Origin: a virus
Lineage: Duplodnaviria; Caudoviricetes
Virus record (IMG/VR): IMGVR_UViG_3300021440_000023
Location: 1-61,945 of that record
Strand: one strand, 5' to 3'
Length of the DNA: 61,945 nucleotides
Shown here piece after piece: positions 21,001 to 30,000 of the stretch. How positions within the stretch are numbered: the first letter of the stretch is position 1; the number at the start of each line of letters is the position of its first letter. A program made the position numbers.

Positions 21001-24000
21001 TGCTCCTCCGCGAGAAGGTGTGGCAGAAAGACCGCAGCGTTGGGCGTCGGGGAAAGCATTGAAGAATGTAGGGTAAAACTTGGCGTCGCTGTCCGGGTCA
21101 GCGCACAAGTGGGCTTCGTCGATAAGTAGCAGGTTGGGCGTAGGTATCTGCTTATTTAAAATAGGACGGTAAAGACTCTGTACACTGGCGAACAATACCG
21201 GGTGGTCTTTGTCACTACGTTCCAAACCGGCACACAACACGCCTGGTTCGATACCTGTCAAGCGTTGAAACTCTTCAGCGTTATTTTTCACTAGCTCTTG
21301 TACGTGAGTCGCTACGATGACGCGGCCACCTTTCTCTAAAACCCGACGAGACAACTCCGCAACAACTAGAGACTTACCTGCGCCGGTTGGTAGCTCTACA
21401 AGCGGATGGCCGCCGGATTTTAAACACTCCCAAGCTTTGTCGCAGCTTTCCTGCTGGTAATATCGCAACTTCATACATGTTCTCGCTATGTGTTATAGGG
21501 GTGCTCAGTATAGCGTAATCTGCGTTTTACGGCAAGTATAAAAATATTTTGCCCCCATAGCCAAAAAGGGGTTTACTTTTATGCCCCCATGAACTATACT
21601 TGTTTTCAAGGTTGACCACCTTGAACCGATAACTGATAACTTGGAAGGATCAAACATGAAAACCTACGCTACTCGCACCCAAGCTCTCCGCGCCCTCCGC
21701 AATATTGGAGACGAGGCTCTTAAGAACGCTAAGAAGCTGATTGTTGAGACGGAAGACGGAACATTCTCTTTTGATGAAGACTTGGCTGAGCTGGCTCAGT
21801 ACGAAGGTGTTGTGGGTATTGAAGAGTCTGAAGAGGTCTTACCGACTGCTAAAATCGCCCCTATTGGTAAAGAAGTTGAAGGTGATCCGCATGACTACCA
21901 GTGCCCGCATTGCGGTATTGACCTGATGAACGGTGTTGGCGGCCACGGAGACGATTACACTGACGGCAAGGGACGGGTTCGCTACATTAAACATGACAAG
22001 TTCGAATATCGGTGTTTAGCATGTGAAGGTGAATTCGGAACCTCTATACATAAAACAATTAAAACCAAAGAGGGTTCAAACCGGGCTAAGAGTGAAACCC
22101 AATCCAACACTATGCGTTCTTCCATCAAACTGAATCGCACTATCGCTTGTATCGACACAGGGGGAACCTGGAAGAACGCTCACCAAATGTACAAAAACAA
22201 TCCGTCATGGATGTCTTCCGGTCAACAAGACCGTCTGACTGCGGCTCTCTACGCTGCAGCTAAGAAGGGTGAGAAAATTACTGTTGAAGTAAATTCACGC
22301 AGGTTTCAACTGGTGGAGGTCTAATATGTGTTTCAACCGAGAGTATCTGAAAATGGTGTTGGTTCAAGAAGCAGGTGATGCCGAGTTTATAGATGTTTTG
22401 ATGGCGTGCTGCGGCAGAGGGATGGAAATTTAAAATAACGCTTTACTTCTTTGCCCCCATGAACTATAATGGGGGCATGTATAACAAATAACGTGAAAGG
22501 TGATCCAGATGCAACTCTCTGCCAACTCTTACAAAAAGCGCAATCGTAAACAAAAGACTTGTTATTGCAAGGCTTACGCTTTCCCCCACCGCGAAGAAAG
22601 CGGTAAGTGTTACGCTGTAGAATCTGGTCCGTTTTGCGGAGAATGCGGTAAGCCGTGCGACGTATACACCGAAGACACAGGTATTGGGTCTTATGAATAC
22701 TGGGGAGCGACCGGTGTGCACACTCGCATCGACTACTCTTCTAGCTGCTGCAATGCGCAACTTTACAGCGATGCATCTCTTAATAACGAGTGGGAGGTAT
22801 GACCATGAGCAACGCACAACACGCGCCGAGGCCGTGGCAAGTGCACCCGGCGTCGTTTGGTATCTATCCAAGCAACACGCTGGACGTTTCGAAGCGCATC
22901 GCCACCGTGGATACATGCGCCTGCATCGAGCAGGAAAAAGCAAATGCCCGCTTGATCGCCGCAGCTCCAGAATTGCTGGAAGCTCTGGAAATGGTCATGG
23001 CGAAATACAGCAAGCACCTTGATAATTTTGCTTTCGAACAATGCCATTCCGTCATCGCCAAAGCAAAGGGGGAGTAACCGTGAACAAAATTCGCAGAACA
23101 GAACTGGCTAAACTGATGGACAGGTTGCAAGACATTCAACCGACTCTTTCAAATTTAAAGTCAGAGGTCGACGCTATTAGGGATGAAATTGAACGAATCT
23201 GTCAAGAAGAACAAGATAGTTACGATAACTTGACAGAAACGCTACAGGAATCAGAACGGGGTATCACCATGTACGAAAACGTGTCTACCCTAGAAGAAGT
23301 TTCTAGCACATTAGAAAGCTTTTACTCTAGTATCGAAGATTTTGACATAGATGACATTCTGAGTAGGATAGATGACGCAAGGGGTCAACCTTGAACACTA
23401 ACAAAGTAAAGCTGGCGGTAACTGTAGCTTCAGCTGTTTTACCCGGAGGGTTTGTGCTGCTAACCGTGTACTATTTGCTCAGGAGAAAGAAGTGAACGAC
23501 AGAGAAGCTGTACGTGAACTGATAAACACCTTGATTGAAATAAGAACTTTGTGTCCAAACCTGTTTCAGCCGATCAGTATTAGACACGCTAAGTGGGGTA
23601 GGACTCTGAATCGATACATAGAGCGCGAAAACTGTATTCGTGAACATTTAGAAAAAGAGGGTAACACATGAAAAACGCAGATATCAAAAAGCTGGTCGAA
23701 GAATACATCCGAGTTGATGAAGAAGTAAAACGTTTGGAGCGTAATAAGAACAAGCTAAAAGAGAGTATCATCAGCTTGGGTGAAGGTGTGCACTGTTGCA
23801 ATCTGGGACATGTTAGCGTTACTTGTTCTAGCTCTAAACGCATCAGTTCAGAACTTTTAAAAGAGAAGTTTGGAGAAGATCAGCTCCAGGACTGTTATAG
23901 CGAATCACAAACTGTGACTGTCCGTATTTCATTGAAAAAAGAGGATCAATAATGTCTAAGTCTATTTTCCCAACGTATTCTCTGTCCCGTAACGATATTA

Positions 24001-27000: not shown

Positions 27001-30000
27001 CCGCCGACCATCCTACGTCTATTAGAGGAAAGAGTGTTACCCGAGCAGGCAGAAAAATTTGACCCTGAAAAGATGTCAGACACTATTAAAAGTATGGCCG
27101 CCGACGGGGTTAAAGTTTGGGGTTCAGCTTACATGATTTACCCCGGTCGCGACAAAGGAGTAAGCAAAGCAGACACGATCGCTTCCAAGTTTCTGCTACC
27201 TTTAGCCCGAGACGCCGAAACGATTCGATCAGCAGTCAGGAAAAACAGCGTGGAGGCAGTGACCAACTGCTTAACTGGTTATCACGGTTGGAACACTTTC
27301 TTGTCGGGTCAAGTTAGCGCTGATCTAACTTACTTTGAACCCTTTAACGCTGCGTCTGATATCAATACTTGGGCACCTGTTGGTCCAGGATCTACCGAAG
27401 GGTTGAATATCCTGTTTGGTCGCCCTAAAACCTCAGCCTGGAAGCAAGAAGAGTTCAATAAGCGGCTTCAGTGGGTTAAGTCGACATTGGAAGACAATAT
27501 CGCGCTGAAAGGGTTGACCTTACATGACGTGCAGAATGTTATGTGTGAAATGTCTAAGTACTGGAAGGCTATCCAATCAGAAGCCAAACCTAAGCGTTTG
27601 TACCAACCTGAAACTAACTTTTGAAAGAACATATGGAAATAACTGCAACTAACGCCAATTCTATGTTTTCAGACATGTTCTGGAAGCTTCACATTTACGG
27701 AGTTAAGGCTGACTCTCGTAATGGGCCTGTGGTTCGTATTATGGAACCCGTATTAACCACAGTGTTAAATCCTAGGGAGAGGGTGCTTTTTCACAAGGGT
27801 CGAGACGCCAATCCGGTGTTCCATTTGATGGAAAGTGTTTGGATGCTGGCTGGTAGGAACGATGTTGCTTTCCCTGAGCTGTTTAACTCTCGTATCGGGC
27901 AATATTCAGACAATGGTGAAACCTTCAATGCTGCATACGGATACCGGTGGCGTCACCATTTCGGGTTCGACCAGTTGACGGCGGTGATCACCCAATTGCG
28001 AGCCAGCCCGTCTACCCGTCAGGGCGTTGTGCAGATGTGGGAAAGCTCAGATCTAGTCAAGGAAACCAAGGACAAAGCGTGTAATACGCAGTTGATCTTT
28101 GAGGTATCTAATGAGAAGCTGAATATGACTGTCATTAATCGTTCCAACGATGCGTGGTACGGTTACGCAGGGGCTAATATTGTGCATTTTACGGTGCTAC
28201 AGGAATTTGTAGCTAACGCTGTTGGTGTCGATGTCGGACTGTATCGTACTTTTAGCACCAATTTACATCTGTACACTGAAATGTACGGGGCGACTAAATA
28301 TTTAGAAACTCCACCGCTATCAGAAGACTACGACATGTATCGTTACGGTGAAGTTGAACCTTACCCGTTGGTAGAAAACAATGAATGGGTTCAATGGTTG
28401 CGAGATGCTGAAAAATTTTGCGAAAACCCATTCGCCGAACCAGACTATAATTGCCGGTTTTTTACAGAAGTGGCGTATCCTGTGGCAATGGTTAGCAAGG
28501 TTCGCAAAGAAAAAACCGGAAACGGTATGGAGTGGGTCAATCGCATTGTCGCTTCTGATTGGAAGATGGCTGTCGCTGACTGGGTCGAGCGTCGTGAAAA
28601 CGCTAAGAGGGGTGAAAAGTGAAAGATCAGTTGGGATTTCTAGTTGACGGAGCCAATGTCAGACGCTACCACACTATACCTACACTAATTCCGGAAACCG
28701 TCGGGCATCATTCCCACATGGTAGCGTTGTTAGTTTTTATGTTGGTGGAAAATCCTTCAAAAAATTTAATCTTCGCGGCTCTCGTACATGACCTAGCAGA
28801 ACATCAAACAGGAGATATCCCGTCACCTAGTAAACGTCGTTTTGGCATAGGTGAGCAGGTTAATGAGGTAGAAAGTATCCTGCTTGAGGAGTCCGGTTGG
28901 GGGTATGAGGAGCTTACGAACGCCGAGTGTCGCGCTCTAAAAATAGCTGACTTAGCTCAAGGGGCTATGTATTCGGCGGAAGAAATTCTGAGGGGTAACT
29001 CAAGAATGAAATCGGTTTTTGACCGATACATTAGCTACGCGGAAGACTTGATGCTGTGCGGGGCGGAAACAGAACTTTTTAACCAAATCAAGGATATGCT
29101 AAAATGAGTATTGAAAATAAAGTTGAACAGGTTGACGGGGATCACTATCAGGCGGGGTCCGGCGGGGTGCAACACTGGGATTATTGCGTTGGCGCCAACG
29201 TAGGTTATCTAGAAGGTTGCGCTACAAAGTATCTATGTCGGTGGCGTAAGAAAAACGGCTTGACGGATCTAAAAAAGGCTCGGCATTTCGTTAAGAAGCG
29301 TATCGATAGCGTGCAACAGGGTACAGGGGCTGTGAAAGGTGTAAACATTAAAGACGGCATGTTCAACAGGTTCATTTCAGATAACGGTATCCCGGCCAAA
29401 GAGAGGGGGCTGATCAATGTTATTATGCATTGGAAAAGGCTGGATCAACTCATAGAGACTTACTACGGGTTAAACTCTATGATCCATGAGATCGAGTTAG
29501 AAAAAGCCCGTGGTATTGAAGATAAAGAAGGTGAGCCAACTTCAGCCTACGTAAACCAAGATGCCTAATACTATTGTTTTTGACACTGAGATTCTAGGTG
29601 GACGCTTCCTGTTCAAAGGTAGAGTACTAGAGAACCGCAACCTTATAAGTATATGGAGCAATGAGGATGGGTGTATCTCTAAGTTGAGAGATGTCATGAA
29701 TTCTGGGTGCCTGTTTGTGTCTTTCAACGGTATAAAGTTTGACATACCTATTATTTCGGCCGTGATGTGCGGTAAAGATATCAAGACGGTAAAAATGATA
29801 GCTGACAGTATCATTAAGCAAGAGATGCAGCCTTGGGAAGCGGAAAGAAGATTCGGTCTACCGCCTCTAAAAGTAGACCATATAGATCTAATAGAGGTGG
29901 CTCCTTCTTTCGTAGGGCTAAAAACTTACATGGCTCGCATGCATTCTACGTGGTTGAGAGACTTACCGTTCCCCCATGACGTAGAATCGCTAACGGAAGA

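Follow-up and report, generated by a model that had tools for sequence, protein, structure and literature searches.

A likely complete thymidine-hypermodification operon of ViI-type logic in a caudoviral genome from IMG/VR

How might a phage complete a hypermodified thymine with a pyridoxal 5'-phosphate (PLP) enzyme and an amino-acid:DNA transferase (AADT), yet with no radical S-adenosylmethionine (radical-SAM) enzyme, and which base would result? These questions are raised by a run of six genes at positions 23952-28622 (plus strand) of the IMG/VR virus record IMGVR_UViG_3300021440_000023 (Duplodnaviria; Caudoviricetes). The whole linear record (positions 1-61,945; 61,945 bp) was analysed and is referred to here as the window. 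The run likely constitutes a complete thymidine-hypermodification operon working by the logic of Salmonella phage ViI, in which an AADT is followed by a PLP decarboxylase. A pathway of this kind, comprising a hydroxymethylase, a DNA kinase, an AADT and a PLP enzyme without a radical-SAM step, had been proposed in an original prediction made from the sequence, and all of these families are present and coupled. The genes of the run, and the three that continue it downstream, are as follows:

23952-24920, plus strand: PLP enzyme of the ViI gp226 type, fold-type II (phrog_3650; blastp to gp226)
24917-25135, plus strand: open reading frame (ORF) of 72 amino acids (aa), no Pfam or PHROG match
25132-26136, plus strand: AADT, formerly aGPT-Pplase2 (PF18724)
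26147-26737, plus strand: P-loop 5-hydroxymethyl-2'-deoxyuridine (5-hmdU) DNA kinase, 5-HMUDK (blastp to PaMx11 gp49 and M6 gp54)
26734-27624, plus strand: 5-hmdU DNA kinase helical-domain protein, formerly aGPT-Pplase1 (PF18723)
27621-28622, plus strand: thymidylate synthase (TS)-family enzyme, predicted deoxyuridine monophosphate (dUMP) 5-hydroxymethylase (PF00303, phrog_5131)
28619-29107, plus strand: HD-domain phosphohydrolase, YfbR-like 5'-deoxynucleotidase (PF12917)
29104-29568, plus strand: DUF3310 protein, conserved module companion (PF11753, phrog_5839)
29561-31432, plus strand: DNA polymerase, 623 aa, probably family B (phrog_1252)

Organization and conservation of the operon

The six ORFs are located exactly where, and in the order in which, they had been predicted. 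Adjacent genes overlap by 4 nucleotides (nt) at all junctions but that between the AADT and kinase genes, where a 10-nt spacer is found, and the coupling runs on past the TS-like gene into the HD, DUF3310 and polymerase genes. A single operon of approximately 5.6 kb would cover all steps from the nucleotide pool to the finished base. The order PLP-AADT-kinase-helical-TS-HD-DUF3310-polymerase recurs across 28 related loci identified through a pattern scan of IMG/VR. The AADTs of these loci are 51-71% identical to that of the window and many are carried on contigs of 53-64 kb, with near-duplicates among them (L008/L009/L010/L012; L019/L020; L023/L024).

Predicted formation and phosphorylation of 5-hmdU

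The protein encoded at 27621-28622 is predicted to be a dUMP 5-hydroxymethylase. It contains a TS domain (PF00303; e-value: 1e-21), matches phrog_5131 (e-value: 2.2e-106) and shares 42% and 41% amino acid identity with gp51 of phage PaMx11 and gp58 of phage M6, respectively. The catalytic Cys154, the R174-S-N-D177 stretch and Asn186 are retained. The last of these, the dUMP-type Asn that had been predicted for this enzyme, aligns with the cytosine-specifying Asp of the CMP 5-hydroxymethylase MilA and thus fits a uracil substrate. MilA is furthermore the best solved relative of the protein (Bitscore: 70.8; e-value: 9.6e-19). That the protein is instead an ordinary TS, leaving the cluster without its 5-hmdU substrate and the DNA canonical, is highly improbable. 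It passes the Pfam threshold for TS and keeps the catalytic Cys and Asn, but no TS scores above 45.9 bits, and it is 41-42% identical to the homologues in M6 and PaMx11, both of which have bases derived from 5-hmdU in their DNA (PMC5889632). A conserved 5-hmdU kinase and AADT would moreover be left without a substrate, since no TET/JBP gene is present: the PF12851 profile has no six-frame match in the window at E<=10. The absence of such a gene makes the TS-like enzyme the sole possible source of the 5-hmdU used by the kinase.

The predicted kinase shares 34% amino acid identity with PaMx11 gp49 (blastp e-value: 2.5e-31) and 32% with M6 gp54 (e-value: 4e-13), with ViI gp243 matched at an e-value of 0.011. 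A Walker A motif starts at Gly11, and the only Pfam match is sub-threshold (PF18748; e-value: 0.002). A match to phrog_800 is also found; its label, 'terminase small subunit', is the one attached to M6 gp54 and PaMx11 gp49 in GenBank; Table 1 of PMC8989533 lists both as 5-hmdU DNA kinases, the M6 protein having been assayed. The helical-domain partner (PF18723; e-value: 1.6e-42) is 30% identical to M6 gp55 (e-value: 7e-39) and 27% identical to PaMx11 gp50. The HD hydrolase (PF12917; e-value: 1.1e-8; 34% identity to PaMx11 gp52) stands where its counterparts do in M6, PaMx11 and cyanophage Pam3 and probably shapes the nucleotide pool, and the adjacent DUF3310 protein (PF11753; e-value: 3.1e-6; phrog_5839; e-value: 6.9e-28) is 34% identical to M6 gp61 and 28% identical to PaMx11 gp53.

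The PLP enzyme and the 72-aa ORF

The product of 23952-24920 is a predicted decarboxylase of a DNA-bound amino acid, with Lys54 as the putative Schiff-base residue. It lacks a Pfam match, is assigned to phrog_3650 (e-value: 8.6e-83) and shares 34% amino acid identity with ViI gp226 (e-value: 2e-63), while M6 gp52 is matched only at an e-value of 0.002. Lys54 is invariant in all 19 aligned relatives, and profile comparison places the surrounding region on the PLP-lysine region of D-cysteine desulfhydrase and 1-aminocyclopropane-1-carboxylate (ACC) deaminase. An AlphaFold2 model (pLDDT 89; pTM 0.88) has the ACC deaminase homologue 1j0a as its best fold match (e-value: 4.8e-11; TM 0.63), a structure that also served as template for gp226 according to Lee et al. 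(PMC8989533). Sequence comparison of the PLP protein alone against solved structures returned only chance matches to antibodies. A small tree, in which rooting of the ingroup is unreliable, joins the clade of the window's enzyme with gp226 and sets M6 gp52 and Pam3 gp43 at the end of a very long branch.

A gp226-type PLP gene is present in 24 of the 28 related loci and lies directly upstream of the AADT gene in 23/28. Of the other five, L021 is truncated, and in L029 the PLP gene is found on the other strand, approximately 4 kb away. A PLP gene is missing from the loci L014, L016 and L030, the last of which carries a DHH-family gene beside the AADT instead, and the whole records of L014 (27% complete) and L030 (73% complete) contain no PLP gene either. 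L027 and L028 are without the helical-domain gene. The AADT pocket residues described below are unchanged in all five of these variant loci.

Four proteins from the sister clade of the AADT (see below) contain both activities in a single chain, arranged as PLP-AADT (P0137), AADT-PLP (P0133 and P0157) and kinase-PLP-AADT (P0146). Their PLP parts share 33-45% identity with gp226 and 31-39% with the PLP enzyme of the window, and their AADT parts are 38-45% identical to its AADT. The fusions suggest that the two activities are tied together, across AADTs with different pockets. Kinase/PLP/AADT fusions in metaviromes are likewise mentioned by Lee et al., who describe combinatorial permutations of such modification genes (PMC8989533).

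The PLP enzyme may alternatively make the free donor, or catalyze an elimination or replacement, in which case the final base would be the AADT product itself or some other derivative. The closest solved folds (ACC deaminase, D-cysteine desulfhydrase and other fold-type II enzymes) belong mostly to elimination and replacement enzymes, and some of the related loci lack the PLP gene. Such a role is nevertheless unlikely, as gp226 and M6 gp52, which are of the same fold type, are reported to decarboxylate DNA-bound substrates (PMC8989533), and the existence of PLP-AADT fusions speaks for both activities working at one site. Decarboxylation of a DNA-bound amino acid thus remains the preferred assignment.

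The 72-aa ORF between the PLP and AADT genes is not a fixed component of the operon. Homologues are located elsewhere in two relatives (L007:8272-8466, 62% identity over 65 aa; L018:4848-5087, 33%), and other relatives have unrelated ORFs of 55-65 aa at this site. The five closest relatives carry here a dCTP-deaminase-like gene (PF22769; e-value: approximately 1e-36; L003:2070-2621, L004:4480-5028, L005:7011-7664, and also L006 and L007), the product of which presumably feeds dUMP. The 72-aa ORF was considered as a remnant of this gene and rejected as such, as PF22769 matches nowhere in the window. GIY-YIG-type endonuclease genes are furthermore inserted in the operons of L004 (3926-4483) and L025 (7225-8004), the insert in L025 separating a short AADT-like fragment (6818-7099) from the complete AADT gene (8001-9002).

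Absence of other tailoring enzymes

Neither radical-SAM (PF04055) nor DAO-type flavoenzyme (PF01266) profiles have a six-frame match in the window at E<=10, with controls for both being positive in 14/14 genomes. The best tblastn e-values against the window are 0.94 for the radical-SAM protein gp53 of M6, 2.7 and 0.86 for the flavin lyase (gp47) and acetyltransferase (gp48) of PaMx11, and 0.089 for the hydroxylase of Mycobacterium phage Lolalove. The CxxxCxxC motif occurs four times in the window, always in stop-to-stop frames of 44-158 aa. One occurrence is in a cysteine-rich stretch of a 133-aa ORF (39499-39900, plus strand), which does not reach the length of a radical-SAM enzyme and matches no family. 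Scans of 41 other ORFs in the window revealed replication, recombination and virion functions only, or no match.

These searches bear out the original prediction in its claim that the genome has no radical-SAM or flavin-lyase gene. A divergent radical-SAM gene, which it had named as counter-evidence, was looked for and found neither in the window nor in the 28 related loci, none of which contains a radical-SAM isomerase, flavin lyase, acetyltransferase, T-dioxygenase, M6-type PLP enzyme or M6-type AADT homologue. The missing radical-SAM step had, however, been presented as an anomaly, and is better viewed as the normal state of a ViI-type route. It is to be expected, because the PLP enzyme resembles ViI gp226 and not M6 gp52, and the AADT is of the gp247 type.

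The amino-acid:DNA transferase and its donor

The AADT passes the Pfam cut-off of its family with ease (PF18724; e-value: 6.3e-20; Bitscore: 72.3 against a cut-off of 26.2), and hhalign aligns it with the M6/PaMx11/phiW-14 group with a probability of 96.5% over 282 columns. Glu245 and Cys249 line up with Glu243 and Cys247 of PaMx11, which are named in PMC11472151. Sequence searches with the AADT alone and with its profile (A2) against solved structures gave no match, even though the PaMx11 (8z2m) and YuA (25qc) structures were included, so the family link rests on Pfam and hhalign. By blastp, the closest reference proteins are Lolalove gp3 (38% identity; e-value: 9e-53) and ViI gp247 (31%; e-value: 1e-28), with no match to M6 gp51 or PaMx11 gp46.

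A quick IQ-TREE phylogeny (LG+G4; SH-aLRT support) was constructed from 93 AADTs, comprising that of the window, six from related loci, nine reference proteins and 77 representatives, with the fragments P0180 and P0142 dropped. The window's AADT falls in a clade of 13 rows (support 100), the sister of which is a 40-row clade of uncharacterised enzymes that includes Lolalove gp3 (support 94). The next lineage to branch off (support 91) is the ViI clade (7 rows; support 100), and an outgroup clade (support 99) contains the enzymes of M6, YuA, PaMx11, Pam3, phiW-14, SH-Ab 15599 and Tonitrus. This phylogeny, which had been proposed as a check, places the enzyme far from M6 gp51, PaMx11 gp46 and phiW-14 gp109 and nearer to ViI gp247, in a clade separate from it. 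The phiW-14 transferase had been named gp72, and is gp109 in Table 1 of PMC8989533.

The catalytic Cys, the metal ligands and the donor-determining pocket positions of the family are identified in structural work from 2026 (PMC13458397). The corresponding positions were mapped onto the AADT by sequence alignment only, with MAFFT and hhalign in agreement and the published residue identities for YuA and SH-Ab 15599 reproduced:

Glu245: metal-binding Glu
Ser246: second metal ligand (Thr elsewhere)
Cys249: catalytic Cys
Gln250: position of YuA Lys248
Asn253: position of SH-Ab 15599 His230
Arg259: position of YuA Tyr257
Tyr264: position of YuA Asp262

The four pocket positions read W, K, R, D in six of the seven rows of the ViI clade. 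In the clade of the window's enzyme, the first is Q (6 rows) or T (7 rows) and the remainder are N, R, Y in 13/13 rows, and a Tyr that is conserved elsewhere in the family is a Gln. By both clade and pocket residues, the AADT thus falls outside the gp247 serine-transferase group. Arg259 is shared with ViI gp247 and is invariant in the 41 rows of alignment A2. This common Arg fits a carboxylate-bearing donor, as judged from the aligned residues, and the other four positions compared differ between the two clades.

Serine is the single likeliest donor, and it may tentatively be proposed that the product is exactly 5-(2-aminoethoxy)methyl-2'-deoxyuridine (5-NeOmdU), as in ViI and other Ackermannviridae. 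Within the family branch that holds both ViI gp247 and the AADT of the window, no donor but serine is known (PMC8989533), the partner PLP enzyme is gp226-like, and Arg259 occupies the YuA Tyr257 position that published work links to binding of the donor carboxylate. The separation of the two clades, each with full support, and the 13/13 conservation of a different pocket, however, speak against a simple transfer of the ViI assignment. Two pocket substitutions sufficed to turn a diamine transferase into a glycine transferase (PMC13458397) and are thus enough to switch the donor in this family.

A different amino acid, attached through its side chain, is a plausible though less than even prospect, with threonine, homoserine, cysteine, ornithine, lysine and diaminobutyrate as candidate donors. 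Together with the gp226-type decarboxylase, such a donor would yield a new thymine hypermodification, or a known polyamine-thymine by a new route in which an amino acid is attached and then decarboxylated. The distinct clade, and a pocket unlike that of the ViI clade at four of five compared positions, would accord with this, as would published work in which a small number of pocket residues determines the donor and numerous clusters of the family await characterisation (PMC13458397). Furthermore, gp226-type PLP domains pair with AADTs of several different pockets. On the other hand, no positive evidence favours any particular donor, and the pocket differences, which derive from alignment, could have arisen neutrally between proteins that are 31% identical. 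The position of the AADT outside the ViI clade and its altered pocket suggest that the product is either 5-NeOmdU or an undescribed relative, the same alternative between 5-NeOmdU and another amino-acid-derived base at which the original prediction had arrived.

Proposed pathway

We suggest that, before replication, the TS-like enzyme would convert dUMP to 5-hydroxymethyl-dUMP, that the nucleotide pool would be shaped by the HD hydrolase, possibly together with the DUF3310 protein, and that the phage polymerase would then incorporate 5-hmdU into DNA. After replication, the P-loop kinase would phosphorylate the 5-hydroxymethyl group, as M6 gp54 and its homologues are reported to add one phosphate to 5-hmdU in DNA (PMC8989533). 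The AADT, with Cys249 and a metal held by Glu245, may then displace the phosphate and attach an amino acid via a side-chain atom, such that the alpha-amine stays free. In the last step the gp226-type PLP enzyme, through Lys54, would remove the carboxyl group to give a thymine with an amine-ended side chain. The equivalent steps in ViI are the attachment of serine through its oxygen by gp247 and the subsequent removal of CO2 by gp226 (PMC8989533). According to the same source, the PLP enzyme requires a free primary amine, hence the radical-SAM isomerase in M6 with its N-linked glycine. No such isomerase would be needed in the pathway proposed here, because the alpha-amine is never masked.

Several points weigh against this pathway. 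The modification chemistry and the modified state of the virion DNA are deduced from genes alone, each chemical step and the donor being read from gene identities, order and conservation and from the absence of other tailoring enzymes. At 34%, the identity of the PLP enzyme to gp226 is low, and its closest solved structures are deaminases and desulfhydrases, with no decarboxylases among them. L014, L016 and L030, which have no PLP gene beside the AADT, suggest that the PLP step is dispensable. As the AADT lies outside the ViI serine-transferase clade with four of the five compared pocket positions altered, the donor and linkage are extrapolated. Finally, the helical partner has no established role, and M6 gp55 is reported to be unnecessary in lysates (PMC8989533).

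Comparison with characterized systems

Reference proteins were taken from the phage records of experimentally studied systems and compared by blastp. The greatest likeness in enzyme set and logic is to ViI (Ackermannviridae), where an AADT is followed by a gp226-type PLP enzyme and no radical-SAM enzyme takes part. Its pathway proteins are the 5-HMUDKs gp67 and gp243, the serine:DNA transferase gp247 and the PLP decarboxylase gp226 (PMC8989533). On the sequence evidence, the window appears to have the corresponding TS-family hydroxymethylase, P-loop kinase and gp226-type PLP enzyme. It differs from ViI in the clade and pocket of its AADT and in its kinase, which is M6/PaMx11-like rather than gp243-like. 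Furthermore, the ViI genes are scattered (gp226 at approximately 140.5 kb; gp243 and gp247 at 149.6-152.3 kb) over the genome of a 157-kb myovirus, whereas those of the approximately 62-kb record form one overlapping operon and are accompanied by a different polymerase.

The Pseudomonas phages M6/YuA and PaMx11 of the Mesyanzhinovviridae, which produce 5-(2-aminoethyl)-2'-deoxyuridine (5-NedU) and 5-acetylaminomethyl-2'-deoxyuridine (5-AcNmdU), respectively, have the kinase-helical-hydroxymethylase-HD-DUF3310 order in common with the window, likewise upstream of the polymerase and at 27-42% identity. The same kinase-to-DUF3310 block is found in Pam3. The features of an M6-type 5-NedU pathway are lacking in the window, however, as Gln250 and Arg259 replace the glycine-binding Lys248 and Tyr257 of YuA, the PLP enzyme differs in type from gp52 and there is no radical-SAM isomerase, and the flavin-dependent lyase and acetyltransferase of a PaMx11-type 5-AcNmdU pathway are also absent. 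The polymerase is unrelated to that of either phage. The claim that the lineage is unlike that of M6 therefore stands for the polymerase and virion genes and falls for the kinase, helical, hydroxymethylase, HD and DUF3310 genes, which match M6/PaMx11 in sequence and order. The operon is thus a mosaic of an M6/PaMx11-like core and a ViI-like PLP/AADT pair, adjoined by a different polymerase. As judged from these comparisons, it would represent a modular exchange in which an M6/PaMx11-type core received a ViI-type tailoring pair.

Lolalove (Coopervirus) has the closest AADT of 50,697 deposited phage records (37-38% identity), with the pocket Arg, Tyr and Gln in common with the AADT of the window. 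The Lolalove cassette consists of ParB, T-dioxygenase, AADT and kinase genes, with 5-hydroxymethyluracil made on the DNA by a TET/JBP-type hydroxylase, and neither a PLP enzyme nor a TS-like gene is located nearby. Such cassettes lie at the left genome end in both Lolalove (L002, 1-3462) and Rhodococcus phage Tonitrus (L037). The Lolalove AADT is annotated as 'nucleotide pyrophosphohydrolase', and its tblastn match starts upstream of the annotated start. The transferases phiW-14 gp109 (putrescine) and that of Acinetobacter phage SH-Ab 15599 (1,3-diaminopropane) belong to the same family and keep the Cys and metal-binding Glu (PMC13458397), but are placed in the outgroup clade and need no PLP step; their acidic pocket of Gly, His, Asp and Asp corresponds to Gln, Asn, Arg and Tyr in the AADT of the window. 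Finally, the metagenomic 5-HMUDK/PLP/AADT fusions join the same activities that are encoded here by separate, translationally coupled genes.

Genome setting, polymerase and virion genes

CheckV estimates the 61,945-bp record to be 100% complete. Plus-strand genes occupy approximately 21.6-41.4 kb, and this block is flanked on both sides by minus-strand genes for a helicase, a primase-like protein, the large terminase and virion proteins. The G+C content is 43-48% in the replication and modification block (22000-34000) and 52-58% in the virion blocks (4000-10000 and 44000-58000), a contrast which hints that the two halves have different histories. Scans for promoters and terminators gave counts at chance level (23 vs 19.0 +/- 4.1 and 15 vs 13.5 +/- 3.8, respectively), and no tRNA was found in the record.

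The 623-aa polymerase is probably a member of family B. It matches phrog_1252 (e-value: 5.5e-149), is approximately 36% identical to its counterparts in Rhodobacter phage RcTitan and Pseudomonas phage 73, and has no similarity by blastp to the M6, PaMx11 and ViI polymerases. The family-B assignment made in the original prediction is favoured by weak matches to family-B PDB entries (1s5j, e-value: 1.3e-4; E. coli Pol II, e-value: 6e-3) and goes without a Pfam match. Stretches in the translation that resemble what we take to be the consensus of motifs A, B and C are also visible. Directly downstream, at 31429-31734 (plus strand), a Pam3 gp32-like protein is encoded (PF23992; e-value: 1.9e-19); Pam3 itself carries an M6-type hypermodification cluster with a radical-SAM gene.

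The short tail that had been proposed for this virus rests mainly on one fibre-like protein. Encoded at 53191-55455 (minus strand), this 754-aa virion protein matches phrog_19943 (e-value: 4e-160). Proteins that are fibre-like or of SPRY/lectin fold in Methylophilales phage MEP301, in Pelagibacter phages and in cyanophage SS120-1 share 35-42% identity with it. The Pelagibacter, Methylophilales and Prochlorococcus phages that share it are presumably podophages. A weak 'DNA ejection protein' match (e-value: 1e-7) is also found among the virion ORFs, most of the large ones having no PHROG or Pfam match; five minus-strand ORFs of 390-914 aa without such a match are located at 10718-13462, 8754-9926, 5243-6970, 41451-44617 and 50086-51981. 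Short-tailed pelagiphages of the HTVC023P type are reported to have an M6/PaMx11-like pair of TS and helical proteins (PMC9599517).

Distribution of the lineage

The AADT clade is well represented in metagenomes. In a large protein collection, 778 proteins match the AADT at E<=0.001, and the best 120 of these 778 are all at least 55% identical. No deposited phage falls in the AADT clade, the best match among the 50,697 deposited records being only 37% identical. One member of the clade (P0088; 58% identical AADT) is encoded on an 8.5-kb contig named by NCBI as a Fluviibacter sp. metagenome-assembled genome, which is a weak hint of a betaproteobacterial host. Another AADT of the family (P0150) contains an intein with an HNH domain. 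A DNA-level search of phage records returned as sole match 178 nt of the TS gene, at approximately 70% identity to Pseudomonas phages. Two DNA sequencing runs contain only 0.05-0.08 of the sampled words of the record, and no RNA run is listed. A full-text literature search retrieved no paper on this lineage, with the limit that Figure 2 of PMC8989533 and the supplements of PMC8989533 and PMC13458397 may depict such contigs or pocket logos. The carin-5 paper (PMC12686479), to judge from the part consulted, concerns SP-15-type sugar modifications, which are unrelated.

Implications

The enzyme kit and its logic are already known, and what is new is the documentation of the mosaic, together with the extent of the clade and a fixed pocket unlike that of ViI. 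Should the donor be other than serine, a new donor class in the family would be recognizable by its pocket, with Q/T, N, R, Y in place of the W, K, R, D of the ViI clade. Hypermodified thymines shield phage DNA from restriction enzymes, and the enzymes that make them are also used for DNA labelling. A clade with a fixed, different pocket and a built-in decarboxylase is as such a target in which a new DNA base may be found, or which may otherwise prove that very different pockets take serine.

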